A stretch of 64,000 bases of DNA from an archaeon (GTDB taxonomy: Archaea > Nanobdellota > Nanobdellia > Pacearchaeales > GW2011-AR1), in the NCBI GenBank assembly GCA_018651605.1, contig JABIDS010000009.1:84563-148562 (forward strand), read 5' to 3'. The translations under genes and the position numbers were made by a program. This document shows, piece after piece, positions 35,746-56,271 of the stretch. Position 1 is the stretch's first letter. Each line of letters opens with the position of its first letter. The notes under the pieces are model-generated. The model saw only the letters and a program-made list of their open reading frames with translations, was not told where the DNA came from and made no database searches.

Positions 35746-35818
35746 CCCTCGATCGTATAATGGTTTATTACAGGCGGCTGTAGACCGCTTAATGCGAGTT
35801 CGATTCTTGCTCGAGGGA
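35746..35818 (+). tRNA. tRNA-Tyr (GUA)
   Basis: Acceptor ccctcga/tcgaggg with the C1-G72 pair typical of archaeal tRNA-Tyr; anticodon stem ggcgg/ccgct with loop ctGTAga; T arm gcgag-ttcgatt-cttgc; discriminator A. Confidence 0.85.
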
Positions 35819-35819
35819 T
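35808..35819 (+). repeat. attL core (tgctcgagggat) at 3' end of tRNA-Tyr
   Basis: Exact 12-bp repeat of 50573-50584. Extends to 18/21 matches (35799-35819 vs 50564-50584). Confidence 0.75.
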
Positions 35820-35845
35820 TGATGTATATGTTCGTGTTTGGTAAG

Positions 35846-35853
35846 ATTTATAA
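35846..35853 (+). promoter_or_regulatory. TATA box for integrase gene
   Basis: atttataa is centred 26 nt upstream of ATG 35876. Confidence 0.45.
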
Positions 35854-35875
35854 GGAAAAGGTTAGTAGATAATTC

Positions 35876-36970: not shown

Positions 36971-37602
36971 TTTGAACAAAAGTTCTTCTAAAGAATAAAT
37001 ATTCACACATAGTTTATTGGGGAGTTCTATTATCTTCATATATCCGTGAAACAATTAGAGATTTTGAAAACATGAAACTAATTTTCTACTTCTCATATTA
37101 TAATCTTCCTTATTTTATTTATAGTCTTTCTTTATCCATTTTCTTTTACGTTTTTTAATTGCTTCTTTTTTATCAAGTTCCTTTTCATTCTTATTTCATT
37201 CTATGAATTCTTTAGTATCTATTTCTTGCTGGAAAAAATCTTTGAGCATCTGGCACATTTGTATTTTCTTCTGCGTTCTAGAAGTACTAAAGATTAAAAG
37301 CAGTTTGGACATTTTGGTTGTAGATTTAATTTTTGCATGAGTGTTAATAGGTGGAGAAGTATTTACGTTTTGTTGAAATAGTAGCTTTTTTCTAGACCAA
37401 AAGACTTTTAAAAGGTATATACCTTGTATATTAGAGTATTTTCAGTTATGACTTAAAGAGTATACAGATTAATAAAAAGGTAAATGTAACCTTAAGTAAG
37501 CAAGAAATAAACGTCCCTTTTTTTCACAAATAAATGAGGATTTTTTTATTTATAAAACCTTGTAATCACTTTAAAACAACACTAAATTTTAAAACAAAAA
37601 AA

Positions 37603-38481
37603 ATGAAGATAAAAACACAAAGGAGTGAGAAAAAGATGGATGATGTAAATTTAGTCCAGCTTCCAAGCAATCAATTTGTTATTCCAAATAGTCAGGAAAT
37701 AGATTTGTCAAAGGTTTGTAATCAGAAGATTATAACTATGCCTTTTGCAGTTAAAGGTTTTAAATTCAGTTCAAGAAACATGAATAAATTTAACTCTTCT
37801 AATGTGAGCGAACAAAGGCAAGGATATAAAGAACTTTGTAACTTATATCCGAATTCAAAATTTCTTTTACATATCCAAGTCAAAGAAAAAACTGAATTTA
37901 CTGATGAACAAATAGAATTTATCGAGAAAGTTCAAGAGATTGAACAAAGTCCTTTTTTCTGTGTTTATGAGAAATCATACAAACAATCGGAAAAAGAACT
38001 TAAATCTCAGTTGATAGAGGCAAGAAAAAAATATCCTGACAAGGAAATAGTTCCAGCAGTAGAAATCTATACAAGATATAATGCGGAGAAGGTTAATGTT
38101 ATGTCTGAGCTTAATATCAAGAAATGTATTGTAATTTACAGGAACTATATCAAATATGAAGAAGAGTGGAAGGAATTAATGGGACTACTTGACACCATGG
38201 AAATTTCTCGTTTTGTTTTTGGTGTTAATCCACGTATGAGAAGGAAAAACAGGGCGTCGGTTTTATTAGCCCCATTAAGATATGGTGCTAATTATGTATG
38301 TCATGGACTTCCTTGGAGCGGTGGAAAAGGAAATGTCTATCTTTTAGATAACTGGGTTTACAAAGTTACTCAGAGAGCAACATATCCTATAAGCCGAGTA
38401 GATGCTTTGAATAAAGTAAATACATTGACACCAGAAATAAAAACATTAAGTGTAGAGCAAATTGAAACCTTGCTTTACTGA
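37603..38481 (+). CDS. hypothetical protein (island)
   Basis: ORF. Start moved to ATG 37603, downstream of the TATA-like tttatttataaaa. No motif. Confidence 0.5.
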   Translation: MKIKTQRSEKKMDDVNLVQLPSNQFVIPNSQEIDLSKVCNQKIITMPFAVKGFKFSSRNMNKFNSSNVSEQRQGYKELCNLYPNSKFLLHIQVKEKTEFTDEQIEFIEKVQEIEQSPFFCVYEKSYKQSEKELKSQLIEARKKYPDKEIVPAVEIYTRYNAEKVNVMSELNIKKCIVIYRNYIKYEEEWKELMGLLDTMEISRFVFGVNPRMRRKNRASVLLAPLRYGANYVCHGLPWSGGKGNVYLLDNWVYKVTQRATYPISRVDALNKVNTLTPEIKTLSVEQIETLLY

Positions 38482-38676
38482 TAGAGAAATATAGGGATGC
38501 TTATTGTATGCCTTATCCCACTCTAATAAAATTTTTTCTTTTATTTCTTTTTTTCTTTTTTTAGTTATTCTTCCTTCTATAAATGCTTTATCTACTTTCC
38601 GTCTTAGTGCTACAAGCATTATACATTTTCTTTTAAATTCAAGATGCCTTTCTTGTTTTTCATTATGGTTTTCCAT
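38446..38676 (-). CDS. hypothetical basic protein (76 aa, island)
   Basis: Start moved to ATG 38676 (MENHNEKQ), overlapping the stop of the upstream RHH ORF. Confidence 0.4.
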   Translation of the reverse strand: MENHNEKQERHLEFKRKCIMLVALRRKVDKAFIEGRITKKRKKEIKEKILLEWDKAYNKHPYISLSVKQGFNLLYT

Positions 38677-38842
38677 TGCTAATATCAATAAAAGGTTTAT
38701 TATTGAATACCCAATTTTCAATTATTTTTTTCATTAATTCAGAACGAGAATTACATCCATATAGTTTGAAAGCTCCGTCTAATAATTTTATGTTATTTTT
38801 CCCAACCGTGAATGAAACCTGATTTTCTTTTTTACTAACCAT
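38663..38842 (-). CDS. ribbon-helix-helix (CopG/Arc-like) DNA-binding protein (59 aa)
   Basis: Hand-translated MVSKKENQVSFTVGKNNIKLLDGAFKLYGCNSRSELMKKIIENWVFNNKPFIDISNGKP shows a beta-strand plus two-helix RHH pattern. Below the track cutoff. Confidence 0.55.
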   Translation of the reverse strand: MVSKKENQVSFTVGKNNIKLLDGAFKLYGCNSRSELMKKIIENWVFNNKPFIDISNGKP

Positions 38843-38947
38843 TTTATTGGTAACTTACCTTTAATTTTAAATGTAATGTTAATTTATAAATGTTTGTAAC
38901 TTACCTCTAATAGAAACATTTAAATAATAATATATACTAAGTATACT

Positions 38948-39136
38948 ATGGAAAAGAAAAAAATTGACATAGACCTTAGAGTTAGTTTAGATGAAGGAGA
39001 CGAAATGATAGAGAGAGATATAAGAAAATTTGGAAATGCAAGTCACGTAATATTGCCTCAGAAACATGAAGGGAAAAAAGCAATCATAATAATTACTGAG
39101 GAGATAAGGGATGAAACTAATTTAGTCAAGAGATAA
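38948..39136 (+). CDS. small AbrB/SpoVT-like (DUF2080-like) protein
   Basis: KFGNASHVILPQKHEGKKAIIII resembles the FGNSxxVxLPKxxxGKxV swapped-hairpin motif. Confidence 0.5.
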   Translation: MEKKKIDIDLRVSLDEGDEMIERDIRKFGNASHVILPQKHEGKKAIIIITEEIRDETNLVKR

Positions 39137-39145
39137 GTAAATCTA

Positions 39146-39403
39146 TCAAATTCGAAACTCTTTCAACTCCACCAACAACTCAAGATACTTCTTTCCCCTA
39201 TCACTAATAACATAATAGCTCTTCTTGTGACCTTTATCTTCCCTAACAATTAAATCTTTCTCTAATAAGTATTTCAATGCTGTCTGCAAAGTATCATGAC
39301 TCAAACCAATATCTTTATACAAACTGGCATAATTTTCATTTTTCTTATTTAACATATATAATATTTTATACAAACATTCAACAATTTTTATTTTAAATAT
39401 CAT
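39146..39403 (-). CDS. winged-helix transcriptional regulator (85 aa)
   Basis: YASLYKDIGLSHDTLQTALKYLLEKDLIVRED...YYVISDRGKKYL shows the wHTH pattern. Confidence 0.6.
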   Translation of the reverse strand: MIFKIKIVECLYKILYMLNKKNENYASLYKDIGLSHDTLQTALKYLLEKDLIVREDKGHKKSYYVISDRGKKYLELLVELKEFRI

Positions 39404-39460
39404 ACGGGAAAACCGATGTATTTATATATAACTATTACATAGAATTATCTATGCAATACA

Positions 39461-39880
39461 ATGGAGGTATTTAATATGAAAGTTGAAAGATTAATTTTAA
39501 GTTTGTTGTTATTTGTAGCAGTTTTTGTAGCTTTATTCTTTTTCATGCAATCAAATGAAGGATTTACGGGTAATGTTGTAGGAATAGATAGTAAAGCAAA
39601 AAAGATTGTAAATACGATAACACCTATTAAAAGTGATGCAGATAAGTGTGCAGAGAAGTATTTCTCATGTATTCAAAGATGTCCTCCTTCTTTATTAGAT
39701 GCAAGACTTTTGAGTTATACATGTTTTGTTTCATGTGCAGGGACTTATGGCGAAGAATGTGGAGAGGTAGGTTATGATTTGAGTTATAGTAATGAGGCGA
39801 AGATTGATTGTTTAGGTGAATGCATGACAGATTCTAAAATAATGACTTATAAAATAAACTGTATGGATAATTGTTTGTAG
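39461..39880 (+). CDS. secreted cysteine-rich protein
   Basis: Signal/TM helix followed by about 10 Cys in 90 aa. An alternative start is ATG 39476. Confidence 0.55.
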   Translation: MEVFNMKVERLILSLLLFVAVFVALFFFMQSNEGFTGNVVGIDSKAKKIVNTITPIKSDADKCAEKYFSCIQRCPPSLLDARLLSYTCFVSCAGTYGEECGEVGYDLSYSNEAKIDCLGECMTDSKIMTYKINCMDNCL

Positions 39881-39902
39881 ATAATTTTTCTTTTTTATTA
39901 TT

Positions 39903-40835
39903 TTATAATTCTATTTCAACCCAAACTAAATAATGGTCTGATTGTTCTTTAGTTATTTCTGTATAAATTCCATCATCAACATATTCTTCATTCATATCAT
40001 CATTTATAATAATTCTATCATAAGCACAATCTGTTTGTGAAACAGTTGTATCTTCACCATCTTCAATTAGATAATTCCAATCTACAAAATCTCCAGCCTT
40101 TCCATCATCATAACTACAATCTAAATTAAAATCTCCAATAATTAGGACATTTCCTGAATCCTCAACTAAATTTTCAAGTAAATTAATATCTTCTTCTACA
40201 CTATCAGGACTTGTATGATAATTCCAAGCAGTTAATTCATAATCATCAATAAGAAATTCAACCTTTAGTGGTGGTCTTTGAACTTCATCTTGATATTCTG
40301 AAGTATAATCAGTTAATGTTGCTTCAATACTTTTCTTATAGATAACTCCATATTGTTCTTTGCTTGTAGATTGACCTGCTCTTTGAGATATTTGACAATC
40401 ATAATCTTCTAATGAACTACAAAGAGTATTGAATGAACTTCCATCTTTATCTCGGATTTCTTGAAGGAAAAATATGTCATAATCTTCTATTAATGGAACA
40501 AAAAAACTTGAACCTAATTTACCCCATTTAGAATCTCCAAATATCTGTGCATTAAAGTTTGCTATCTTAATGTTTTGTGAATTAGGTTCTGGTTCATCTA
40601 TTACTTCTTTCTCTTCTTTATCGTCATCTTTCTCTTGTTCTTCTTCATCCTCACCATCCTCAAAAAATTCTTCTTTTGTTTCTTCAATAAAATCTTTAGT
40701 GTTTTCTGTTTGTTCTTCAATAATTCTAATAGTATTCCCTGTAATAGTATTAGTATCACTTGGAATCAAATAAAAGAAACTTCCAATTCCAATTACCAAT
40801 AAAAATATTAGTGTGAATAGTAATTTTTTAGCCAT
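39903..40835 (-). CDS. secreted endonuclease/exonuclease/phosphatase-family nuclease (DNase I-like)
   Basis: N-terminal TM/signal and acidic linker; IANFNAQIFG, FFLQEIRD, IIGDFNLDC and C-terminal SDHYLVWVEI are the EEP catalytic motifs. Confidence 0.8.
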   Translation of the reverse strand: MAKKLLFTLIFLLVIGIGSFFYLIPSDTNTITGNTIRIIEEQTENTKDFIEETKEEFFEDGEDEEEQEKDDDKEEKEVIDEPEPNSQNIKIANFNAQIFGDSKWGKLGSSFFVPLIEDYDIFFLQEIRDKDGSSFNTLCSSLEDYDCQISQRAGQSTSKEQYGVIYKKSIEATLTDYTSEYQDEVQRPPLKVEFLIDDYELTAWNYHTSPDSVEEDINLLENLVEDSGNVLIIGDFNLDCSYDDGKAGDFVDWNYLIEDGEDTTVSQTDCAYDRIIINDDMNEEYVDDGIYTEITKEQSDHYLVWVEIEL

Positions 40836-40836
40836 T

Positions 40837-41016
40837 TTATTTTTTTCTTAACTTATTTGCATATTCGACCTCTAATCTCTCATTTTTTTTAAAAGATTTA
40901 AGTAATCTAACAATTATAGAATTATAAGTTTCACCTTCCCCCAATCTTAAATTTTCAAGTTCTTCCTTAGTTTCCCTTGATACGACAATTTTAGGATTTT
41001 GTGGATAAGCTATCAT
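40837..41016 (-). CDS. small CopG/VapB-antitoxin-like protein (59 aa) immediately upstream of the DNase gene
   Basis: Hand-translated MIAYPQNPKIVVSRETKEELENLRLGEGETYNSIIVRLLKSFKKNERLEVEYANKLRKK follows the IxVSxETxxxLxxLxxGEsYxxVIxxLL pattern. Its stop lies 1 nt before the DNase ATG. Confidence 0.5.
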   Translation of the reverse strand: MIAYPQNPKIVVSRETKEELENLRLGEGETYNSIIVRLLKSFKKNERLEVEYANKLRKK

Positions 41017-41069
41017 AATATATTGTAATGTATTAGATATAAAAGGATTTAGTTAGGGGATTAAGATAG

Positions 41070-41393
41070 TTAGAATGAAGGCTTTTTATAATAAGGAATA
41101 AAGAGATTCCGATTCATTAAAATTCTAAAGATAACAATAAGAAGGAAGATAAAAATCAAGAAGATAAAAATTATGTTCATATAAATGGAAGGATTACTGC
41201 TCATCATTATTACATTATATACTCTTGATATAGCCATCCATGCAAGAAACAAAAAGAGCCATATGAAAAACATATCCTTAAAACCCCAATTTTTAGGTTC
41301 TATATTCATTGTTCTCCTATAGTTTGTTGGGATGTGATAACTCTCCTTCAATTCAAAAAACTTTTTCTTCAAATTAGCATGTACTTTTTTCAT
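41070..41393 (-). CDS. membrane protein (island)
   Basis: Start moved to ATG 41393 (MKKVHANL), which overlaps the upstream stop (ATGA). Two TM helices. Confidence 0.5.
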   Translation of the reverse strand: MKKVHANLKKKFFELKESYHIPTNYRRTMNIEPKNWGFKDMFFIWLFLFLAWMAISRVYNVIMMSSNPSIYMNIIFIFLIFIFLLIVIFRILMNRNLFIPYYKKPSF

Positions 41394-41539
41394 TTTCTCC
41401 TCAACCAACTCAAAGCATAAATCAAACTAATCACTAACAAGAACACTCCAGCAATCTTAATATAATGCCCACCAGCCAATAAACCAATACCAGCAATTAA
41501 AGAGATTATGAATAATCCTAAATCATTATTAGATTTCAT
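41390..41539 (-). CDS. small membrane protein (49 aa)
   Basis: Hand-translated MKSNNDLGLFIISLIAGIGLLAGGHYIKIAGVFLLVISLIYALSWLRRK, with two TM helices. Confidence 0.4.
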   Translation of the reverse strand: MKSNNDLGLFIISLIAGIGLLAGGHYIKIAGVFLLVISLIYALSWLRRK

Positions 41540-41540
41540 T

Positions 41541-41729
41541 TTAACTTGAAACCCATTTTTTAAATCTGCCTGCCATAGTAATCAAACCTAATACCGCTAA
41601 AATAATTCCTATAAACATCATAATTCCACCAATTTTTGAACCTTCAAATAAAAAAGGTACAGTTCCTTTAAAAAATAAGAGAAAACCTAAAACAAACATT
41701 ACTGCCCCAGTTAATAATTTGACTACCAT
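41541..41729 (-). CDS. small membrane protein (62 aa)
   Basis: Two TM helices, tightly packed in the operon. Confidence 0.5.
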   Translation of the reverse strand: MVVKLLTGAVMFVLGFLLFFKGTVPFLFEGSKIGGIMMFIGIILAVLGLITMAGRFKKWVSS

Positions 41730-41774
41730 TTTCTTTAATTCCTAGTAAAAACTACAAAATCAAACTTTATTAAA

Positions 41775-42023
41775 TTAACCTTTAGTAATAATTTTATCTA
41801 ACTTATCTTCAATCCTTTGTAATTGGGAATCTTCCCTAAGTTTCTTCCTACACCATTCAGAAAGAGAAATATTTTCATTTTTAGCCCTATCTTTCATCCT
41901 ATTGAGAGTATCCGTATCAATCATAAAGTGTATCTGAGAATTCTTTTTTAATGACGAATTAATATATTCTAAATTTTCTATTATCTCTTGCCCTATATCT
42001 TTTTTTCCTTGCCATTTATTCAT
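41775..42023 (-). CDS. ribbon-helix-helix-like protein (82 aa)
   Basis: HFMIDTDTLNRMKDRAKNENISLSEWCRKKL shows the RHH pattern. Confidence 0.5.
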   Translation of the reverse strand: MNKWQGKKDIGQEIIENLEYINSSLKKNSQIHFMIDTDTLNRMKDRAKNENISLSEWCRKKLREDSQLQRIEDKLDKIITKG

Positions 42024-42250
42024 TTCATTCTCCTCCGATTATTCCAACGAATAACCTTGATAGGTCGAACAGTTATTAAAAGCAAAATAGAAATAATAAG
42101 GAGGGAGATTAAGAACAATGACATATCGCCTAACCATCGATACTCTGTTCCCCAGGATTTTATTATTAAATCAATTAATATGATTGGAAGTGCCATTATA
42201 GCAAAATAAAAAATACCTTCAAGAAACATCTCTTTTAGTGCCTTTTTCAT
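42020..42250 (-). CDS. small membrane protein (76 aa)
   Basis: Two TM helices. A 4-nt overlap with the downstream RHH gene. Confidence 0.5.
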   Translation of the reverse strand: MKKALKEMFLEGIFYFAIMALPIILIDLIIKSWGTEYRWLGDMSLFLISLLIISILLLITVRPIKVIRWNNRRRMK

Positions 42251-42304
42251 TTTAATTAAGGATATTCTTCATTTATTAAATTAACTAAACAATTACTTAC
42301 TTGT

Positions 42305-42841
42305 TTAATCATAAAAAATTTCTTCAGGTTCATCGATTCTTTCTTGAATTAATTCTGCTAACCAATCTGCAGTTTCTTCTAAATTTTCAATTATAGAAAT
42401 ATTAGGTATTCTTTGAGTATGGTAGCCTTTTGATAATGAATAAATTGTTCTCTTCATATCTGCCAATGCCTGTCTAGAATTAGTATTATGGTGTCTGCCA
42501 TCTACTTCTATATTAAATTTAGCTTTTGGAATAGCAATATCAATAGTTTTATGTCCGTCCCATTTTTCTAATTCTGCAGGAATACCTCTTTTTATCAGTT
42601 CAAAATACAATGTTCTTGATTCACTGGTGGATTTTTTCAATTTCTTTTTACTTATATAATGAACTTCCTTATCATCATCTCTTTCATCATAATCATCTTC
42701 ATATTCTTCATCATAATCTTCTTGGCATCCCTCACATAATATCTTACCAAAATTTTCTTTTGAATCCTCCATAATACTTCTAGTTATTACTTCCTTACAT
42801 TCTGAACAATAATACTCATAATCCATGAAATAATTAAACAA
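42305..42841 (-). CDS. zinc-ribbon + DUF559/Vsr-like restriction-endonuclease-fold protein
   Basis: N-terminal CSEC...CEGC and an acidic linker. The C-terminal IDIAIPKAKFNIEVDGRHH resembles the DUF559 core (D...EVDG..H). Confidence 0.6.
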   Translation of the reverse strand: MFNYFMDYEYYCSECKEVITRSIMEDSKENFGKILCEGCQEDYDEEYEDDYDERDDDKEVHYISKKKLKKSTSESRTLYFELIKRGIPAELEKWDGHKTIDIAIPKAKFNIEVDGRHHNTNSRQALADMKRTIYSLSKGYHTQRIPNISIIENLEETADWLAELIQERIDEPEEIFYD

Positions 42842-42941
42842 TACCTAGTTAAATAATTTTCTAAATAATCATCTGATTATTTATTAGAAAAAACTTAAAT
42901 ATGCTTAAAATCTCTCTAAAATAAAGAAATGATTAAGGAAA

Positions 42942-43541
42942 ATGAAATTTCAAGAAAAATTATCCACTAAACAAATTCAATCAATTTTTTTAATTAGTGT
43001 TTCATTAATTTTATTTTATTCTTTAAGAAGTAAACCAGAACAGAGTGCAGAAATTCTTTTCTTGTTTATTTTTGTTATGTTTGGAGTTTCAATATTAAAT
43101 TTATTTCAAGAGAGCCATAAGAGATACAAAATATTAAGGTCTGAGACTATAGGAGATACGGGAGATTATGATAGCAAAGCAGAAAAAATAGTTGCAGATT
43201 ATTTCAAAGCAAAATCAATTAAATTTTATTTGCATCCTAAGGTTAAAGTTCCTAAAAAGATATGGATTTTTGACAATCCTTTTAGCAAGAGAGTATTAAA
43301 ACCTGATTTTTTCCTTCCTCAGTATAATGCGTTTGTAGAATATTGGGGTATGCTAGATGATGAAAATTACAAAAGAAAATCTGAATTAAAAAAGAAAGCA
43401 TACCGAGAAAATGATATTGATTTTATTTCCTTAACCCCAAGAGACTTAGAAGAAAGGCATAGGTTAGATTGGAATTTTACTCAGAAACTTCTTAGTTTAA
43501 TTAGAGACAGAGAAGGAAATGGATTGGAGTGGAGAAAATAA
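42942..43541 (+). CDS. membrane-anchored PD-(D/E)XK-like nuclease-fold protein
   Basis: Two N-terminal TM helices. KPDFFLPQYNAFVEYWGM matches the PDF...E-x-WG pattern seen in restriction-endonuclease-like domains. Confidence 0.5.
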   Translation: MKFQEKLSTKQIQSIFLISVSLILFYSLRSKPEQSAEILFLFIFVMFGVSILNLFQESHKRYKILRSETIGDTGDYDSKAEKIVADYFKAKSIKFYLHPKVKVPKKIWIFDNPFSKRVLKPDFFLPQYNAFVEYWGMLDDENYKRKSELKKKAYRENDIDFISLTPRDLEERHRLDWNFTQKLLSLIRDREGNGLEWRK

Positions 43542-43662
43542 GGGTTAGCCATTGGAAGCAAAACAATCACATGATTGTTTATTACACATAAACATCCTTA
43601 TGAAAATAACTACTTAAAATTAATTGTTTTAATCTTATTCTTTTGTTAATCTTTGCTAAATT

Positions 43663-44991
43663 TTATAACATTTTTATTTTTGAAATTAACAAATTTCGAA
43701 TATCTCCACCACTACAATAAACACTATTTGAACCCTTTCCTAGAAGAAATTCTTCTTCCCTAAGACCCAACGCCCTAAGAACTGCCATAAGTGATACTTC
43801 TGAAAATTTATATTTACTTTCACTTAAACATTTTTCATAATAAAATAAACTAATATTCGCCCCAATAATTTTGTTATCTTCTAAAACATATTCTTGATTA
43901 ATTGCAGGAGTTCCATCAAGCCAAAAATCCGTTTCATAAGAAAATGATTCTTTACTTATATTTTCATATTTTTTACAATAAAATTTAAGGTTTGAGGATT
44001 CCTTATCGCCTTCATAAATTAATAATTCTTTTAACGCATTTATTTCGATTTCTTTTATGGCATTTTTGATGTTATCAGTAGCATAATCTTCACAACCCAA
44101 TATTGAGTAAGTTACTGGATAATTATTCCATAAATAATTTTTCTTTTCTAAAATTTCTTCCTCTTTTTTTAATTCTACTTCATATTCTAAATCATACGGA
44201 TATATATTCAAGTTTGAACAATCTCCTTTAATTTCTCCATTAGAGTAGATGTGCTTTAAACAATTTATTGTATCTGCATCTATCTCTTTTATTTTACAAG
44301 TTTGAATAGAAATTTTTAAAGGGAACATTATCTGATTAGGAGTATCATAAACATGTCTAAATCCGAAGGTATGCAATATTTCATGAATTTCTGTCTGTGG
44401 AAAATCAAGACATTTTCCATTATAACTTCCCAGATAATTTGAAAAGAAAATTACTTCCCCAGTATTTATTTTATTTTTGTTAAAATCAGTAATTCCTCCG
44501 ACTCCTAAGACTTCCCATCCATCATAATTTTGATAAGTCCCATTAGAATCATAAAGTCCTTGAATTTTAAGTTTAGGATTTTCAGTTTCACTAACTTCCT
44601 TGAAGGTAATTAATCCTTCAGTTTCTTCTTCAATAATATTTAGTGCCTCTTTAATTCTTTTAACTTGCTTATTTCTAGAAATTCCATCCCTATACCAACT
44701 TTGACTTGATTCAGAATAGATGCCTAATGATGAGATATTTAAACTATAAGTTATAGGCATTTCTCTCCAATGCATTTCATTAACTTTTGAAAATGAATCA
44801 TTAATCAAATAATTTTTATTTTCTTTATCATAATCCTCATACGAATATTTCTTAGGAGTTTCTTCCAGATTTATTTTTGATGAATAAAAAAAAGCCAAAA
44901 CTAAAAAAATCATAAATACTAAAATAATTAAGAAATTTTTAAAACTATCTCTCTTTACATTTTTCCCCATTTTATTTTTTTCCCAATTCAT
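43663..44991 (-). CDS. secreted/anchored metzincin zinc metalloprotease (matrixin-like)
   Basis: HEILHTFGFRH (HExxHxxGxxH) plus the Met-turn QIMFP. N-terminal TM helix. Paralogous motif block to 33969-35024. Confidence 0.8.
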   Translation of the reverse strand: MNWEKNKMGKNVKRDSFKNFLIILVFMIFLVLAFFYSSKINLEETPKKYSYEDYDKENKNYLINDSFSKVNEMHWREMPITYSLNISSLGIYSESSQSWYRDGISRNKQVKRIKEALNIIEEETEGLITFKEVSETENPKLKIQGLYDSNGTYQNYDGWEVLGVGGITDFNKNKINTGEVIFFSNYLGSYNGKCLDFPQTEIHEILHTFGFRHVYDTPNQIMFPLKISIQTCKIKEIDADTINCLKHIYSNGEIKGDCSNLNIYPYDLEYEVELKKEEEILEKKNYLWNNYPVTYSILGCEDYATDNIKNAIKEIEINALKELLIYEGDKESSNLKFYCKKYENISKESFSYETDFWLDGTPAINQEYVLEDNKIIGANISLFYYEKCLSESKYKFSEVSLMAVLRALGLREEEFLLGKGSNSVYCSGGDIRNLLISKIKML

Positions 44992-45178
44992 TCATTAATT
45001 ACATTATATATTATAAAAATAGAGAGAGTGAGTATTTATTAAATTAACCCTTAGAAGTCCAAACAATCACCTGATTGTTTATTGTGAAGATTTGGATGGT
45101 TTTTAGAAGTAGAAATGAGTGATTTTAGGAGGTAGATTATTTAGTAAAGTTTTTATATCATATTTTATTAAATAATCT

Positions 45179-45346
45179 ATGAAATATAAGGGATTAATGG
45201 GATTAGTTATGATTATAATTGGAATTACCATAGTTTTAAAATTCCCCACATCAATGAATGGTTTTGGTATACTAATAGGTATGGGGCTTATTGTTATTGG
45301 AGGCCCTCTTACATTAACAAGCTTTATGAAATTTGTTACCAAATAA
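45179..45346 (+). CDS. possible small membrane protein (55 aa)
   Basis: Hand-translated MKYKGLMGLVMIIIGITIVLKFPTSMNGFGILIGMGLIVIGGPLTLTSFMKFVTK. More protein-like than the antisense 85-aa track ORF. Confidence 0.35.
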   Translation: MKYKGLMGLVMIIIGITIVLKFPTSMNGFGILIGMGLIVIGGPLTLTSFMKFVTK

Positions 45347-45381
45347 CTCATTTTCCCCATCTTTGATAATATCCACTCTTT

Positions 45382-45606
45382 CTAAATATTCATAAACCTC
45401 TCAACCGCTTCTTTTGCCCTTTTTGAAGATATCTTAAATCTTTTCATTAATAATTTGTAAGTGTTAGAATTTATCTTCTCTTCTACATATAATGGAACTA
45501 AAAAATCCCAAAAGTTTCCAAAGTGTGGGGAATCGCAGGGTTCTATTAATTCAGCATTTACTATTTGTCTTGTTTCAGGAGACCATACTTTTATTTTTTT
45601 TACCAT
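45382..45606 (-). CDS. hypothetical protein (74 aa, island)
   Basis: ORF abutting the upstream gene. Confidence 0.45.
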   Translation of the reverse strand: MVKKIKVWSPETRQIVNAELIEPCDSPHFGNFWDFLVPLYVEEKINSNTYKLLMKRFKISSKRAKEAVERFMNI

Positions 45607-46116
45607 CTACCCTTCCTTCCAAAACCAATATTTTCTTAGGTTGTGGTGATTTGAAATTCGCGCCCGTAATCCCTCTGAATGTTCAGTAATAATTATATCT
45701 GCCTTTTTACAAAAACTACAATGAAATTTATTTTTTCTTGCAGTCGGCATTCTCATTTGAAAATGGCCTTGGTATGCAATCAAATTAATAGCAAGTTCTC
45801 CAATCTTCTTACAAGTGCTTAAATCTTCTGGATTAACAATTGCAAGAGAAGGCTTATCTGCTTGAGAGTCAAGAATAACAACCCGAAAACATTTTTTATT
45901 ATGTCTTAATCTGAGGTGTTTTGGAATCCTCATATAACTATCATGAGGCAAATCACAAACCTCATGAAACTGAACTTTTAAAGGGTCATTCTTATCTCTT
46001 TTAGAAACATAAGGGATGAAGTTCCCATGCTTATTCATACGCTTTTTCTTAACAGGTTTTCCTGCATAAGTCTTTGGTTTCTTATGAGTTCCACCTTTAT
46101 CTGACCTAGTTTTCAT
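45607..46116 (-). CDS. hypothetical basic protein (169 aa, island)
   Basis: ORF with a K/R-rich N-terminus and His/Cys-containing core. No family recognised. Confidence 0.5.
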   Translation of the reverse strand: MKTRSDKGGTHKKPKTYAGKPVKKKRMNKHGNFIPYVSKRDKNDPLKVQFHEVCDLPHDSYMRIPKHLRLRHNKKCFRVVILDSQADKPSLAIVNPEDLSTCKKIGELAINLIAYQGHFQMRMPTARKNKFHCSFCKKADIIITEHSEGLRARISNHHNLRKYWFWKEG

Positions 46117-46206
46117 ATCAATTTCTCGGAATTCCTAATAAAATTCCGAACCCCCTTATAAATAATTCCGAACCCCATAATTAACATTTTACCGTCTATA
46201 AACATC

Positions 46207-46530
46207 CTAAAAATCCTCCTGAAGCTCATCTTTCATACCTATTCCGAATTCCGAATTTGCACATGTGTCCCCATAAGAGAATAAGATTAATCTATTGAGA
46301 TTAGTCTTTATCCTCGCTATTTTATTTAATCTTGGGAGCATTAAGATTGATTTATGTGGGTTTTTTCTCTCAGACCGCTGGGAATCCTTTAATGTGAGTG
46401 TACACATATTTGAGGTTTTTTTATTACCTATTGGTCTTATATGAACTTTTTCCATTTCTTCAGAAATTTGATTTTTAGTAATCCCAAACTTCCCTACCCT
46501 AGTGCAATTGAACTTTTTATTAATACTCAT
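46207..46530 (-). CDS. hypothetical protein (107 aa, island)
   Basis: ORF only. Confidence 0.45.
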   Translation of the reverse strand: MSINKKFNCTRVGKFGITKNQISEEMEKVHIRPIGNKKTSNMCTLTLKDSQRSERKNPHKSILMLPRLNKIARIKTNLNRLILFSYGDTCANSEFGIGMKDELQEDF

Positions 46531-46657
46531 TTTTATTTTAAAGTATCACTCCTTAATTTATTTTTCGTATATCTTGCCTCATATTTAAGTTTAGTTTTTG
46601 TTTCTCTTTCTCTTTCCAATTTATTTTCTTTTGTTGTTGTCATTTTATTTTAAAAGA

Positions 46658-46672
46658 AGGGGCAATGCCCCT
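46658..46672 (-). terminator. GC-rich hairpin followed by T-run on the minus strand
   Basis: aggggc-aat-gcccct is the only GC-rich hairpin in this AT-rich spacer. On the minus strand it is followed by tctttt, downstream of the putative Rep operon. Confidence 0.3.
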
Positions 46673-46730
46673 CCAATTCTCGCAGGCAACTAATAAACCA
46701 ATTGGTAATTTAATTCGCGAGTATATTTGT

Positions 46731-46853
46731 TCATTCTAAATCATCTCCAATGAGGTGCTCATCCATTTTATTTGAACATTCCTTACAGAGTTCTGAAATA
46801 TATTCTGTCTTCTCTTTCAAACATCCATTACATTTTATTTTATTTTTTTTCAT
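46731..46853 (-). CDS. possible zinc-ribbon peptide (40 aa)
   Basis: Hand-translated MKKNKIKCNGCLKEKTEYISELCKECSNKMDEHLIGDDLE (CxxC...CxxC). Its start overlaps the upstream stop. Confidence 0.35.
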   Translation of the reverse strand: MKKNKIKCNGCLKEKTEYISELCKECSNKMDEHLIGDDLE

Positions 46854-47008
46854 TATATTTCTCCAAATTCTTTTAATAATCTCCTTTGTTGATTTAGTTC
46901 TAGGGTTTCTTTTTCTTTTTCTGAATAATCTTCAGGATAGTTTTTCCTTCTGCGTTTTGAATCCAAAAGCATGGACTCAAGTATTTTGTTGTCAGTTTGC
47001 TCGGTCAT
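46853..47008 (-). CDS. possible small protein (51 aa)
   Basis: Hand-translated MTEQTDNKILESMLLDSKRRRKNYPEDYSEKEKETLELNQQRRLLKEFGEI. Confidence 0.3.
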   Translation of the reverse strand: MTEQTDNKILESMLLDSKRRRKNYPEDYSEKEKETLELNQQRRLLKEFGEI

Positions 47009-47057
47009 TTTTGGTTACCATCACCCCTAGGATTTAGTAGCCTCTTTTAATCACCTC

Positions 47058-49187
47058 TTATATTTTTGCTTCTTTCAATTCATTTATTAATTTTATTTTA
47101 TTATCTTGAAGAAGAATTTGAGACATCTCTTTTCCTAAATCTCCTAAATCTTCAATAGAATATTCCTTATCGGGTTCAAGAGTAATTTTTATCTCTTGCC
47201 CTTTTTTATATCCTGCGATGTTTAAGGATTCTAGAGGTGTAAACTTGCCTACTCCACCCTCCAAACCAAGTGTCAAAGTGTCAGAAGTGTCAGATTTACG
47301 CTTAATTTTCTTATTTTTTTTTTCAAGTGTCAGATTACTTACTGACACCTTCTTATTAAGTGTCAAGTAAGTGTCAGTATACCATTTATTTATTTTATCG
47401 TCGTTATACTTACACCCTGACACCTCTGACACTATTTTTAATATATTCTCTTTAACTACAAACCCTTGTCTTAATAAAATCTCTATGACCTTATAAAAAT
47501 CCAATCGATATCCCCTTTGATTTCCAGTAGGGTTTTCTCTAAAATCAGTAAATCCAAGACTGCTTAATATCATACCAATTTTAGTGTTTGAAATATCATA
47601 ATGTCTAGGACTTTGCTCATCTAGTTCACTAGTAAATTGATTTTTTATGAATTCTACAGATAAAAACTTTTCAACTTCATGTTGACTAAACAATTTAATT
47701 ACCGTTTGAGCCATTATCATCTCCCAACTTTGTTCATCAAAATTAAAATCTCTTATCTCAAATAATCTAACTAAAAAAGAACCTATTTTCTTTTCTAAGT
47801 TCTTATTAATACAACTAGCTAATGCAATCAATGGCTTTGCCAATACCCATTGTCTATTCGCTAATCCATAATCATTTTTAATATTTTTTAGTGAATCTTC
47901 ATATTTTTTATAATTCAATAAACCACAAATATAAATTTTATTTCTTATAGAGCAATATTTAGAATCATCTTCAGGAGGAGGTTCAATATTTCCTCTTAAA
48001 TCTCCTTTTGGTGCTTTAATCATATGCAATGCCACGCTTCTTTGTCCCAAAGCTCCTCTTAGAGGTTTTATAGAACCTATTGCAGAATCCCCTGCAGGGT
48101 CAAATTCATCTGTTTGATTTATATTTTTATCATTTTGTCTAGGAACAGTATTCCCTTTTTCATAACTTCCATTAAGATATTCAACAAGTTCAGAATCCCC
48201 TGTAGTCTTCTTTTTAGAATCATCAAAAAGTCTTTCCATTTCTTCCATAAATAATGTAGCTTTGTTATGATGTCTGTATCTGAAAAAATTTGCAGGAGTG
48301 GGGCATAAGAATTTTTTCCCATTAAAAGAAAGATTTGCTCCAATTCTCATTCCTTTAGATTTTGCAACTCCTGAAATACCTTCATGTTTAATAATTAAGA
48401 ATTTGTCATTTAAATCCCAGAAATAAGTTTTTAAATCTCTTAATGGAAGAAGAAAATACCACATATCATTTTCAAAAACCATCCCCTCATCATAGAATTT
48501 TTTAACGTCATTAAACACTTTTTCAAAGGTGTAGTCTTTTTTATTTAAATTACCCTCGCAAAAAAATTTAATAGAATTCAAACTCCACCTATTTCTTTTT
48601 AAGGTCATAATAGAATCAAAAACAAAGTTAACATCCTCAGGCTTATTATTTTCAGTAATTATTTTTCCATTTTCAAGAACAATCCCTGGAGATAATTCAG
48701 TAGTTTGTATTAATTTGCCTCTCTGCTTTTTTAAAATTAATTCATTAACCTTAATTCCATAATATCTATAGTTCTTATTTTTTATTTTTATCTTACCAAC
48801 TGCGTGGTCAAGAACCTGAGGTAATTCTGAATCATCTAAGATAAATTTATTTAAATCTTTATTAAACTCTTCTTTTTCTTTTCCCTCTAATCTTTCTTTC
48901 AAATCTTCATTATATTCATCTACAAATCTATCCGCATTTTCTTGACTTACCCTCATATAAACACAACTCTTCTCATTAGTTTTCAGCATCTTTTTATCTT
49001 GGAAAGCAACTTCTTTATTGTCTGGGTCTTCTCTAGGCAATTGTTTTAAGTGTTTTGTTAGAGTTTCCTTATCACTCAACCATTTCGCATATTTTTCTTT
49101 CTTAACTTGTTCTTCATCTGTTAAGTATTCTTTAAATTCAACCCTCTCAACATTTTCTTTAGTTGTCATTTTCAACACCTTTTTCAT
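47058..49187 (-). CDS. large island protein (709 aa), candidate replication protein
   Basis: Largest island ORF, heading an operon behind RHH/HTH genes. Degenerate P-loop-like GISGVAKSKG is followed ~43 aa later by LFMEEME (SF3-helicase-like spacing). An iteron array lies inside its 3' part. Function is inferred only. Confidence 0.6.
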   Translation of the reverse strand: MKKVLKMTTKENVERVEFKEYLTDEEQVKKEKYAKWLSDKETLTKHLKQLPREDPDNKEVAFQDKKMLKTNEKSCVYMRVSQENADRFVDEYNEDLKERLEGKEKEEFNKDLNKFILDDSELPQVLDHAVGKIKIKNKNYRYYGIKVNELILKKQRGKLIQTTELSPGIVLENGKIITENNKPEDVNFVFDSIMTLKRNRWSLNSIKFFCEGNLNKKDYTFEKVFNDVKKFYDEGMVFENDMWYFLLPLRDLKTYFWDLNDKFLIIKHEGISGVAKSKGMRIGANLSFNGKKFLCPTPANFFRYRHHNKATLFMEEMERLFDDSKKKTTGDSELVEYLNGSYEKGNTVPRQNDKNINQTDEFDPAGDSAIGSIKPLRGALGQRSVALHMIKAPKGDLRGNIEPPPEDDSKYCSIRNKIYICGLLNYKKYEDSLKNIKNDYGLANRQWVLAKPLIALASCINKNLEKKIGSFLVRLFEIRDFNFDEQSWEMIMAQTVIKLFSQHEVEKFLSVEFIKNQFTSELDEQSPRHYDISNTKIGMILSSLGFTDFRENPTGNQRGYRLDFYKVIEILLRQGFVVKENILKIVSEVSGCKYNDDKINKWYTDTYLTLNKKVSVSNLTLEKKNKKIKRKSDTSDTLTLGLEGGVGKFTPLESLNIAGYKKGQEIKITLEPDKEYSIEDLGDLGKEMSQILLQDNKIKLINELKEAKI
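47269..47432. repeat. iteron-like array: 10 copies of GTGTCA(G)/CTGACAC
   Basis: Direct copies start at 47269, 47277, 47286, 47326, 47359 and 47370. Inverted copies lie at 47342-47348, 47417-47423 and 47426-47432. A perfect inverted repeat, gtgtcag-8nt-ctgacac, spans 47327-47348. Confidence 0.8.
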
Positions 49188-49494
49188 CTTCTGATGATTT
49201 GTTTATTCTATTAAAATTATCAATATTTTCAAAACACAATGTTAATTTAACAGGATTTATACTCCAACCTTCTGCGATTTGATAGATAAGTTTTGCAGTT
49301 TTTGGTAAGTCATATCCTACCAAAATTTGTCTTACTCTTCCTTGAGAAATTCCTGCCTTTATTCCTGCTTCCTTATAATCTCGAAATCTTAACCTCAGGT
49401 ATGTTTTCAAATCATTTGCGTTTAAATCATCATTAAGTAGGTATTTATTAGAGATGATATTGTTAATATTTGGGTTTGATTGTGAATTTTTCAT
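49159..49494 (-). CDS. HTH DNA-binding protein (111 aa)
   Basis: YKEAGIKAGISQGRVRQILVGY shows the helix-turn-helix pattern. Confidence 0.55.
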   Translation of the reverse strand: MKNSQSNPNINNIISNKYLLNDDLNANDLKTYLRLRFRDYKEAGIKAGISQGRVRQILVGYDLPKTAKLIYQIAEGWSINPVKLTLCFENIDNFNRINKSSEDEKGVENDN

Positions 49495-49495
49495 C

Positions 49496-49651
49496 TTAAA
49501 CGGCCTTGATTGCAGAATTTAATTTCTGATTTTCTCTTAAGATTTTATTTAAAGGGATTTCAATATCATTCTCAATTATAAAAGTTAATTTTGGAAATCT
49601 CTCTCGAAATTCATCGTTAATAAAAGGTTTTTTATTTGATTCAAATTGCAT
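49496..49651 (-). CDS. possible small protein (51 aa)
   Basis: Hand-translated MQFESNKKPFINDEFRERFPKLTFIIENDIEIPLNKILRENQKLNSAIKAV. Packed between two genes with overlapping or abutting codons. Confidence 0.35.
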   Translation of the reverse strand: MQFESNKKPFINDEFRERFPKLTFIIENDIEIPLNKILRENQKLNSAIKAV

Positions 49652-49790
49652 TTTGTTTTTCCTGAATTTTTTGTAACACTAAAAATCTAATAAAAGAGGA
49701 TGTTGATAATCCAGAATCCTCTGCAATTTTTAATATTCTTTTTTTATTTTTATCGTCTATAAAAAATGTTATTGATTTTCCTTTTTCCAT
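49641..49790 (-). CDS. ribbon-helix-helix protein (49 aa)
   Basis: Hand-translated MEKGKSITFFIDDKNKKRILKIAEDSGLSTSSFIRFLVLQKIQEKQNAI is a classic RHH. First gene of the minus-strand operon. Confidence 0.55.
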   Translation of the reverse strand: MEKGKSITFFIDDKNKKRILKIAEDSGLSTSSFIRFLVLQKIQEKQNAI

Positions 49791-49929
49791 TTTACTAATA
49801 ACCTATGGTATTTTATAGTACTTTAAGGTAGATATGGTTTATAAACATTTCTATCATATAGTTTTATAGTTTACCATAATGTTTATATATTGATTTAGAC
49901 TTCTAATTTAAATATTATCCAAAAACAAG

Positions 49930-50532
49930 ATGGTTCAAAAACAAATTAACTCAAATGAAGAAGGTGTAAAGAATCTTTTTTTTGACAAAGAAACTCTTGA
50001 AAATGATTTTGAAGGTCTGATGACTTCTCTAACAGATATTGAACAAGGAGTAATAAAGATTTTATATGAGAAAAAACACGCTATGACAATGAGTAAAATA
50101 AGAGGTCTTTTAGTTGATGCTTATTTTCATTACTTAATAGAATTTTATGAAGAAAATACTAAAAAAAAGATTAACAACTTGGCTGAAAAGTCTATTAAAT
50201 GGAGACCTAATTTAGAATTAACATTTTTACAGGCAGAAAAGGTCATGCAAGGAATTACTAAAAAGATGAAAGAAAGGGGTGATAAAGCATTGTATGAGAG
50301 CCAGAGACTAAAAGAAATCAATGATGTTATGATTAATAATGGAATTATACTTCCTTCTAGGAATCTTGTTAATTCCTCCTTGATTAATCTAAAAAGAATG
50401 GGCTTAGTTTCTTTTAGATATGTTATTCCAACCAATTCTCTTAATAAGGAGGATTTTAATAAAAAAGATAGATATCAAAGAGAAATATGGTTCTTAAATC
50501 CTAAATTTTATACTTTTCTAAAAAAGTTATAA
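49930..50532 (+). CDS. hypothetical protein with wHTH-like segments (200 aa)
   Basis: IEQGVIKILYEKKHAMTMSKIRGLL and SSLINLKRMGLVSFRY resemble winged-helix recognition regions. Confidence 0.5.
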   Translation: MVQKQINSNEEGVKNLFFDKETLENDFEGLMTSLTDIEQGVIKILYEKKHAMTMSKIRGLLVDAYFHYLIEFYEENTKKKINNLAEKSIKWRPNLELTFLQAEKVMQGITKKMKERGDKALYESQRLKEINDVMINNGIILPSRNLVNSSLINLKRMGLVSFRYVIPTNSLNKEDFNKKDRYQREIWFLNPKFYTFLKKL

Positions 50533-50572
50533 TCCCTTAATTGTTTAAAACCCGAACTATAACTTCTATTAC

Positions 50573-50584
50573 TGCTCGAGGGAT
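50573..50584 (+). repeat. attR core (tgctcgagggat)
   Basis: Exact 12-bp copy of the tRNA-Tyr 3' end (35808-35819). Confidence 0.75.
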
Positions 50585-54627: not shown

Positions 54628-54648
54628 TTGATTTGGGTTTTGATTTTT

Positions 54649-56271
54649 ATGAGCGACAAACAACCGATTTATATTTTGCCTGAAAGTACTGAGAGAACTG
54701 TAGGTAAGGATGCTCAGAGGAATAATATTTTGGCTGCGAAGTTGGTTGCTGATTCTGTGAAAACGACTTTGGGGCCTAAGGGAATGGATAAGATGCTTGT
54801 TGATTCTGTTGGAGAGATTACTGTTACGAATGATGGTGTTACTATTTTGGAGAAAATGGAGATTGAGCATCCTGCGGCTAAGATGATGGTGGAGATTGCG
54901 AAGACTCAGGAGACAGAGGTTGGTGATGGGACGACGACTGCTGTAATGCTTGCTGGAAAACTTTTGGAAAATGCAGAGAAACTTTTAGATATGAAGATTC
55001 ATCCAACTGTGATTACTAAGGGATATAATTTGGCTGAGAGAAAAGCTAAGGAACTTTTGGAGGAGTTGAGTACTGGTGTGAGTATTGAGAGAGAAGATGT
55101 TTTGAAGCATATTGTTATGACTGCTATGACTGGAAAAGGTGCTGAAAGTGTTAAGGAGAAATTTGCAGATATAATTATTAAGGCAATTAAACAGATTCAG
55201 GAAGATGGGAATGTTGATTTGACTAATATTAAAATTGTTAAGAATAAGAGTAATAGTGTTGAGGATAGTGAGTTGATACGTGGTGTTGTTGTTGATAAAG
55301 TTCGGACGTCTATTGATATGCCTTCTAAGGTTGAGAATCCGCGGATTGCTTTGATTTCTGATGCTTTGGAGATAAAGAACCCTGAAGGAGATACGAAGAT
55401 TTCTATTTCAGAGCCTGCGCAATTGCAGAGTTTTATGGATAGAGAAGAAGAGAATCTTAAGAGGATTGTTGAGAAGATTAAGTCTGTAAATGCAAATGTG
55501 ATTTTTTGTCAGAAGGGAATTGATGATGTTGTTCAGTATTATTTGGCTAAGGAGAATATTTATGCTTGTAGGCGTGTTGCGAAGTCTGATATGGAAAGTT
55601 TGGCTTTTGCTACTGGTGGGAAAATTATCACGAACTTGAATGAAATTTCTATTGAGCAATTGGGTAAGTGTGAAAGTATTGAGGAAGTTAAACAAGGAGA
55701 TGATTCAATGACTTATGTTACTGGTTGTGAGAATCCAAAGGTTTTGAGTATTTTGGTTAAGGGCGGTAGTGAGCATGTTTTAGATGAGATTGAGAGAGCG
55801 ATGATGGATGGTTTGGGTGATGTTGCAGCTGTTATTAAAGATAAGAAAATTGTTGCTGGGGCAGGTGCTATTGAGATTGAATTATCTAAGAGATTGAGAG
55901 GTTTTGCAAATACTTTGTCTGGTAGGGAACAGTTGGCTGTTCAGGAATTTGCAAATGCTTTAGAGTTTATTCCTTTGACTTTGGCTGAAAATGCTGGGTT
56001 GGATCCAATTGATATTTTAACTGAGTTGAAATCTAAACATGATAATGGTGAGGTTTCTGCAGGGATTAATATTTTTAATAATAGAATTGAAGATACTTTG
56101 GTTCAGGGAATAATTGAACCTGCTAAAATTAAGAGACAGGCATTGAGTTCTGCTACTGAGGTTGCGATTATGATTTTAAGGATTGATGATGTTTTGGCTT
56201 CGAAATCTTCAGGGAATTCTAGAGGTGTTGGTTCTGGTGGTGGGATGGGTGGAATGATGGGGATGGATTAA
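54649..56271 (+). CDS. ths: thermosome subunit (group II chaperonin)
   Basis: [40 protein letters not shown] and a [11 protein letters not shown]-terminus. Start moved to ATG 54649. Confidence 0.95.

Follow-up and report, generated by a model that had tools for sequence, protein, structure and literature searches.

Why should one archaeal gene carry, within 163 bp of its own coding sequence, ten copies of a seven-nucleotide word in both orientations? The question is raised by a stretch of 64,000 nucleotides from an archaeal assembly (GCA_018651605.1, contig JABIDS010000009.1, positions 84,563 to 148,562 of the forward strand; hereafter the window, whose first letter is position 1), in which a 709-aa open reading frame (ORF) at 47058-49187 on the minus strand, which we call rep, contains an array of heptamers at 47270-47432, the segment that encodes residues 586-640. 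Our analyses argue for reading this array as an iteron-type origin of replication that belongs to an integrative archaeal element of the Woesearchaeota type and lies inside the 3' part of the gene of the element's own initiator, and we give this reading a probability of roughly 0.68. An origin is preferred over a partition site or an operator because the layout is like that of the Staphylococcus aureus pathogenicity islands (SaPI) and because the repeat covaries with the winged helix of the Rep protein.

Ten heptamers make up the array, together with two A/T-rich stretches and a single palindrome. Read on the coding (minus) strand, it opens with a forward triplet, F1 (GTGTCAG, 47426-47432), F2 (GTGTCAG, 47417-47423, 9 nt from F1) and F3 (GTGTAAG, 47409-47415, 8 nt from F2), which is translated as VSEVSGCK (47409-47432); F3, CTTACAC on the plus strand, is a heptamer with one mismatch that is kept in homologues. 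Across a central spacer of 81% A+T (47378-47408), a candidate unwinding element, stand the first opposed copies, R1 (CTGACAC, or GTGTCAG on the plus strand, 47371-47377) and R2 (TTGACAC, or GTGTCAA on the plus strand, 47360-47366), which supply part of the peptide WYTDTYLTL (47360-47377). Farther along come the perfect palindrome GTGTCAG-attactta-CTGACAC (47327-47348), whose copies begin at 47327 on the plus strand and, inverted, at 47342 on either side of an N8 centre, then a second A/T run (47294-47326, 85% A+T and T-rich on the plus strand) and, last, the reverse copies R4 (CTGACAC, plus strand GTGTCAG, 47287-47293), R5 (CTGACAC, plus strand GTGTCAG, 47278-47284) and R6 (TTGACAC, plus strand GTGTCAA, 47270-47276), all on the minus strand and translated together as SDTSDTLTL (47270-47293). 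F1-F2 and R4-R5 pair as a 17-nt inverted repeat with 94% complementarity. The second A/T run is specific to the element of the window, and the segment that it forms with the palindrome (47294-47348) is a gap in all other rows of our array alignment (A3).

The original prediction, made from the letters of the window, had recognized most of this arrangement. Its total of ten copies in 164 bp is right (nine contain GTGTCA and one is the variant), as are the spacings of 8, 9, 40, 33 and 11 nt between direct copies and the position of the palindrome. The proposed split into seven direct and three inverted copies has to be amended to six direct and four inverted copies on the plus strand, the variant CTTACAC being one of the latter; the prediction itself had listed six starts. 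It had also set the array between an A/T run and the end of the gene, while the run sits within the array and the stop codon (47058-47060) lies about 210 nt farther on. The clustering of nine GTGTCA and one variant in 163 bp is far above chance: in 100 simulations of 64 kb under a first-order Markov model, no stretch of 164 nt held more than 3. GTGTCAG is found eight times in the window, seven of them within the array, whereas shuffled sequences average 2.55 and never reach 8; for GTGTCA the figures are 15 and nine. A heptamer common elsewhere would have told against the original prediction, and a single further GTGTCAG in 64 kb is what we found.

How the array behaves among homologues indicates what is being conserved. 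We fetched 34 loci (handles beginning with L), 26 of which carry unique complete genes and served for the array comparisons. The array occupies an identical position in these 26 genes, where the copies stand at constant offsets on the coding strand (34, 43 and 51 for the forward ones; 90, 101 and 108, and then about 132-150, for the reverse ones). In the family, F1-F3 are followed by an A/T-rich spacer and this by R1-R3 and R4-R6, which are reversed. Lineage-specific heptamers number 109 in the arrays and 15 outside them, i.e., 19.6/kb against 0.067/kb, which makes them about 290-fold denser inside. The iteron takes the forms GTGTCAG, GTGTCCG, TTGTCCG, TTGTCAG, ATGTCAG and GTGTCAA; the core TGTC is invariant, positions 1, 6 and 7 vary in concert, and the variant of a lineage is common to all of its copies in both orientations.

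A first alternative is that the repeats reflect a peptide motif needed by the protein (VSEVS, SDT or LTD), for instance in a phosphorylated or flexible linker, and that the repetition of the DNA is a by-product. The peptides VSEVS, WYTDTF and SDTLTD are indeed well conserved in most homologues, and residues 579-608 are modelled as confident helices. Most of the array, however, encodes a segment with a predicted local distance difference test score (pLDDT) below 50, and translation passes through the heptamer in three frames and in either orientation, as V-S (GTG TCA), G-C-K (G TGT AAG), x-D-T (nCT GAC ACn) and L-T-L (CTG ACA CTT), in agreement with the several reading frames noticed at the outset. 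Between homologues, synonymous codons agree 0.9-1.2 times as often as expected along the gene and 1.4-1.83 times as often only at residues 577-641, and the valine codon of the array is always GTG, a codon that accounts for 16% of the valine codons in these genes. Two lineages shift frame and keep the DNA: in L016, L017 and four further proteins, paired indels cause F1-F3 to be read as RCQGCQGCK instead of VSEVSECK, and the protein P0060 reads them as QKCQKCPK. In L007 and L024 the array reaches or crosses the stop codon, and in L024, where it crosses, one copy lies beyond it. Homologues such as L016, L017 and L024 thus keep the DNA repeat where the peptide changes, the opposite of what a constraint on the peptide predicts. 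Because synonymous identity is raised, several frames are used, frames have shifted and a copy has passed the stop codon, the constraint is on the DNA, as had been proposed at first; the array is under selection as DNA, and we consider a peptide origin of the repeats very improbable.

If the array acts as DNA, what does the gene that houses it encode? Searches of the 709-aa protein against Pfam, PHROGs, NCBIfam and PDB sequences, with the single sequence and with a profile, returned no match. An AlphaFold2 model built on 63 homologues (pLDDT 82.7) comprises a beta domain (residues 124-192), a P-loop ATPase (residues about 203-400, delimited by invariant alignment columns and the model, with its core encoded at 47988-48581 on the minus strand), a helical region (409-500), a winged-helix-like domain (507-608, encoded at 47364-47669 on the minus strand), a disordered linker (609-662) and a small C-terminal domain (663-709). 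In the alignments A1 and A2, K276, S277 and K278 of the Walker A-like EGISGVAKSKG are invariant, as are E316 and E318 of the Walker B-like LFMEEME, and these stretches would be the Walker A and B motifs. Foldseek matched the model to the PrimPol helicase of African swine fever virus, Cch of the staphylococcal cassette chromosome mec (5dgk) and the PriRep protein of SaPI (7pds), also to mpox E5, vaccinia D5, MCM and phage primase-helicases, and among weaker matches to ORC/Cdc6. By its modelled fold, the protein is a helicase-initiator of the superfamily 3 (SF3)/AAA+ kind with a winged helix added, so that the early suggestion of an array embedded in a rep gene agrees with a product that is, by fold, a replicative helicase-initiator. 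The ORF would put up with the array since the larger part of these letters specifies the disordered linker that runs from the winged helix to a variable C-terminal domain. The tails past the array differ by subfamily (zinc-finger-like, of the EEIKKAGY type, or of the type found in the window), and in some members the ORF stops at the array. Judging from these sequences, the array would mark the ancestral 3' end of rep, ORFs having later read through into variable tails.

An indication of who reads the iterons comes from a scan of all columns of the protein alignment, in which the three loci with TGTCC (L027, L029 and L030) were compared with the 23 loci with TGTCA. Only one non-trivial column separates the two sets perfectly: residue 555 in the wing, PTG555NQRGY, is G in 23/23 TGTCA loci and R, K and R in the three TGTCC loci. 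The nearest relatives of L027, which are 66-67% identical to it, have G555 and TGTCA, and the differences in the winged helix lie mainly in the wing. When the dipeptide encoded by F3 is compared with residue 555 in 63 proteins, all 42 (42/42) that have CQ or CK also have G555, and the six proteins with CP or RP have R, K or H at residue 555 in four cases, N in one and G in one. The change from TGTCA to TGTCC places a G on the complementary strand, and a basic residue is a plausible reader of guanine in protein-DNA contacts. The comparison is suggestive of the Rep winged helix as the reader of the iterons and makes residue 555 (G versus R/K) a candidate specificity determinant for iteron position 6 (A versus C).

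The same evidence bears on a second alternative, in which the repeats would be the sites of another protein of the element, a small ribbon-helix-helix (RHH) or helix-turn-helix (HTH) protein, and would serve in partition as a centromere-like site, in copy-number control or in repression. Arrays of 7-bp heptads, direct and inverted, characterize the partition and repressor sites of RHH proteins, e.g., those bound by omega of pSM19035. Small RHH, HTH or MazE-like genes adjoin rep in several elements, and a small HTH-like gene is present in the window: two small genes (111 aa with a weak HTH-like match, and 51 aa) lie just upstream of rep at 49159-49651 on the minus strand, a position occupied in related elements by RHH and HTH genes. 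The array nevertheless goes with rep in every context while the neighbouring small genes vary, circles of 5.5-6 kb carry little except rep and int, the winged helix of Rep itself contains a residue that changes together with iteron position 6, and the promoter region at 49652-49930 contains no copy of the heptamer. We therefore hold such a partition or repressor site to be unlikely.

The inverted copies invite a third explanation, namely that they act as a folded single strand, either as a structure in the rep mRNA or in an antisense RNA or as a cruciform or stem-loop origin like that of pRN1. The array region folds better than shuffled sequences (-54.2 kcal/mol and z -6.1 as RNA, z -5.1 as DNA), the 17-nt inverted repeat of F1-F2 and R4-R5 is perfect over 16 nt in L009, forward and reverse copies vary together, and the differences in L014 and L015 looked wobble-compatible. 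The Sulfolobus plasmid pRN1 offers a precedent: its origin is a stem-loop beside the primase-helicase gene, an essential cis element with a long inverted repeat at the 3' end of orf904 (PMC4234260). The likeness includes that pRN1 is small and archaeal, a plasmid whose Rep, a PrimPol-SF3 helicase fusion, has a winged helix; PrimPol is present only in some members of the window's Rep family. In contrast, the pRN1 element is a non-coding stem-loop of about 100 nt whose structure and not its sequence is conserved, and it has no iteron array, whereas the family described here keeps a sequence motif and yielded no consensus structure. RNAalifold applied to 26 sequences retained just one 7-bp helix at -3.1 kcal/mol, and deviations from the lineage consensus were wobble-compatible in only 3/54 forward and 16/111 reverse cases, and on this we set a folded RNA aside as the principal explanation. 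A search of the array against Rfam gave no family match. Moreover, three forward copies face five to eight reverse copies and yet the lineage variant is found in all of them, the F1-F2 spacing is 9 nt against 8 nt for R4-R5 in many loci, and an invariant TGTC is not needed for pairing and fits base-specific contacts with a protein. The invariant TGTC, the concerted changes at positions 1, 6 and 7 and the unequal copy numbers fit a strand-symmetric motif of duplex DNA that is read by a protein. A folded strand is in our opinion quite unlikely to explain the array, and a contribution from a cruciform of the kind proposed for pRN1 is possible.

An iteron origin of the element is what we retain, and its closest known parallel is found in bacteria. 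In SaPI origins, 6-12 penta- or hexanucleotide iterons surround a central AT-rich region, at least two of them on each side in opposed orientation, and a self-loading Rep helicase binds them through its C-terminal winged helix (PMC9371898). The likeness with SaPI and related phage-inducible chromosomal islands (SaPI1 Rep1, SaPI5 PriRep5) extends to an integrated element with its own initiator-helicase, an ATPase ring followed by a C-terminal winged helix, short iterons opposed on both sides of an A/T-rich centre, a location at the 3' end of rep, and a fold of the window protein that matches PriRep (7pds). The two systems differ in that no sequence similarity was detected between them (Pfam and PDB sequences, single sequence and profile), that the host of the window is an archaeon, that its iterons are translated inside the ORF while those of SaPI lie just downstream of rep, and that they are heptamers with an invariant TGTC; dependence on a helper phage is not indicated. 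For an origin inside a coding sequence, the precedent is phage lambda, whose iterons and AT-rich tract lie in the middle of gene O and where added iterons lengthen the protein (PMC7466680). There too the iterons and the A/T tract encode a linker-like part of the initiator; however, O is no helicase and recruits DnaB through P, and the lambda iterons are four 19-bp direct repeats in mid-gene, unlike the present heptamers, which point both ways and lie in the 3' portion of a gene for a helicase.

Similar principles are known outside bacteria. In the polyomavirus core origin, inverted GAGGC repeats beside an A/T tract direct the head-to-head assembly of two SF3 large T hexamers. Large T assembles via its own origin-binding domain; this DNA-binding domain is unrelated to that of the window protein, the origin is non-coding and the host is eukaryotic. 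At archaeal oriC, inverted origin recognition boxes (ORB and mini-ORB) flank an A/T-rich unwinding element and are read by the winged helix of the AAA+ protein Orc1/Cdc6; ORB elements are longer, non-coding and chromosomal, and Orc1/Cdc6 is not itself a helicase. The G-rich string beside the ORB repeat may have its parallel in a G-rich box, GGAGGGTGGAGTAGG, which follows the last copy of the array at 47248-47264 on the minus strand. A G-rich box (e.g., GGGGGGTGGGGT) also occurs 20-40 nt past the last reverse copy in L028, L031, L033, L009 and L032, and at least 8 G in 12 nt are found after the array in 38% of the 26 loci against 1% of background windows. Going by the letters, this box could belong to the origin, as a G-string or G-quadruplex, or could simply encode a Gly-rich linker.

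It is on these grounds that a mechanism may be sketched. An element of about 15 kb at the tRNA-Tyr of a Woesearchaeota-like chromosome would use the array as its replication origin; the winged helix, encoded just upstream of the array, would recognize the heptamer nTGTCnn, here GTGTCAG; and with F1-F3 opposing R1-R2 and then R4-R6 across the A/T-rich spacer, protomers bound on both sides would face each other and form two hexameric rings, head to head. These rings would melt the spacer (47378-47408) and load themselves, as proposed for SaPI Rep, and priming in relatives would be the task of the N-terminally fused PrimPol domain. The insert specific to the window (47294-47348) may add an unwinding or binding module. 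Binding, melting, helicase loading and origin activity are what we infer for the array and its Rep. Origins of this kind are known, and what appears to be new is an archaeal Rep family without annotation, the in-frame placement of the array in a helicase gene, a motif conserved through frame shifts, and a candidate recognition pair.

Several observations weigh against this proposal and temper our confidence. Iteron position 1 (G/T) has no correlated protein column except the codon that the iteron itself encodes, the independent TGTCA and TGTCC lineages are few, and the codons of the wing are only about 90 nt away from the array, so that co-inheritance of a linked segment could contribute to the covariation; the actual readers could also be RHH or HTH proteins encoded nearby. 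The spacer is only modestly enriched in A+T (a mean of 74% in the 26 loci versus 68% for the gene), and the array is degenerate in the two smallest circular contigs, L018 and L021. Some homologues possess an N-terminal primase domain (PF01896) and the Rep of the window has no PrimPol domain; when relatives' PrimPol domains were used to look by tblastn for a separate primase in the window, nothing but the conserved part of rep itself was matched. Finally, GC and AT skew gave no origin signal in three circular contigs, where skew is uninformative because coding-strand bias dominates.

The element that would be served by this origin can be delimited tentatively. A tRNA-Tyr lies at 35746-35819 on the plus strand, and its 3' end, TGCTCGAGGGAT (35808-35819), which is a candidate left attachment site, recurs on the plus strand at 50573-50584 in an intergenic gap as the candidate right one, so that the integrated element may span 35808-50584, or about 14.8 kb. 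The borders are tentative because the repeat measures merely 12 nt (chance expectation about 0.1, a rough estimate; no tRNA-Tyr attachment repeat of at least 14 nt was found), and the right border is uncertain because the low-GC region continues to about 54 kb. Next to the tRNA-Tyr, at 35876-36970 on the plus strand, tblastn reveals a divergent tyrosine integrase, which has no direct Pfam match and aligns with the PF00589 integrase of L018 at E 4e-6 (22% identity over 301 aa). Such an element might be thought to carry the array as a site of recombination (attP) or of packaging (pac or cos), since integrative elements have sites of this sort and an integrase is at hand. The element is integrated, yet array and rep are intact in its interior, the candidate attachment repeat is the 3' end of the tRNA-Tyr, no capsid or terminase gene was recognized in the family searches of the window, and a scan of the viral contigs of IMG/VR yielded no relative; a site for recombination or packaging is hence scarcely credible here.

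Related elements, which likewise encode PF00589 integrases, support the idea of an autonomous replicon. Three contigs that look circular, L018 (5991 bp), L021 (5553 bp) and L031 (8540 bp), with terminal direct repeats of 123, 55 and 30 nt, respectively, contain a PrimPol-helicase or helicase Rep, a tyrosine integrase and few small ORFs, and their gene content suggests complete, small plasmids of the integrative type. On the 8.5-kb circle, nine of the ten TGTCAG are within the array. The Rep family appears from these contigs to exist both integrated and as small circles. Species-representative genomes that bear homologues are metagenome-assembled genomes of Candidatus Woesearchaeota, together with one bin labelled Methanosarcinales, and the window itself has archaeal genes, among them a thermosome subunit (54628-56271), an archaeal GlmM and a Hef-associated nuclease.

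Further features of the window and of the related loci are worth recording. Matrixin-like (Peptidase_M10) proteins are encoded both outside the element, by the tRNA-Tyr (33969-35024, with a CARDB domain), and inside it (43663-44991), and in L034 a CARDB/Peptidase_M64 gene is close to rep; matrixin and CARDB genes may be cargo common to host and element. The element also contains nuclease-like genes at 39903-40835 (Exo_endo_phos), 42305-42841 (DUF559/REase-like) and 42942-43541 (HNH or resolvase-like). At positions 1-30000 of the window, GC skew reaches +0.58 in 2-kb windows and tracks gene orientation, and the purine bias of the coding strand is unusually strong. A 595-aa SNF2-like helicase (21965-23752), with partial matches below cut-offs to DISARM DrmD and to DpdE, may be a component of a defence system of the host chromosome. 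In L027 (658-4452), a host gene for gyrase A or topoisomerase IV that adjoins the related element is split by an intein with a LAGLIDADG endonuclease.

How far does the arrangement reach beyond these close homologues? In a profile search of 1.84 billion representatives, 2,910 relatives were recovered at E<=1e-3, and the stricter cut-off of E<=1e-10 left 1,469. Distant members (P0065-P0185) have a peptide repeat with a period of three residues after the winged helix and then a second set of repeats, the pairs reading, for example, SSQSSQSSQ...NDECDE, SSQSSQ...CDECDE, SSLSSLSS...GNEGNEG and STSSTS...VDEVDE; such paired peptide repeats can be mutual reverse complements as DNA. At one locus, L034 (2974-3115), the DNA has TCATCACA three times at 9-nt spacing, then a gap of 39 nt, and past the gap four exact reverse copies (one TGTGATGA and three TGTGACGA) in addition to degenerate ones; all seven TCRTCACA octamers of its 6.36 kb are inside 142 nt. 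On the basis of this one locus and of what the peptides suggest, the architecture would extend past the subfamily with different iterons. It is conceivable, although we stop short of calling it probable, that a large superfamily of helicase-initiators of archaeal mobile elements, so far without annotation, carries its cognate origin as translated sequence, in inverted arrays whose period is 9 nt; such an array may be accommodated in the linker codons that follow the winged helix, and each subfamily may have an iteron of its own (GTGTCAG, TTGTCCG, TCRTCACA and others deduced from peptides). If so, these would be the first predicted origins for plasmids and integrated elements of the DPANN type, wing residue 555 and iteron position 6 would make a readable recognition pair, and rep transcription and origin firing would possibly be coupled.

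Very few plasmids and viruses of archaea have a known replication origin, and in the literature searched we found none described for the mobile elements of DPANN archaea. The array and its Rep provide a testable origin, and a protein that probably reads it, for integrative elements of a widespread family whose Rep is without annotation in the family databases searched, and the signature of the array can be used for finding related elements in metagenomes. Rep and array together are a candidate minimal replicon for a vector backbone. For the biology of the family, the locus is a clear natural case of overlapping codes, in which a cis-acting DNA signal limits the choice of codons and survives frame shifts.

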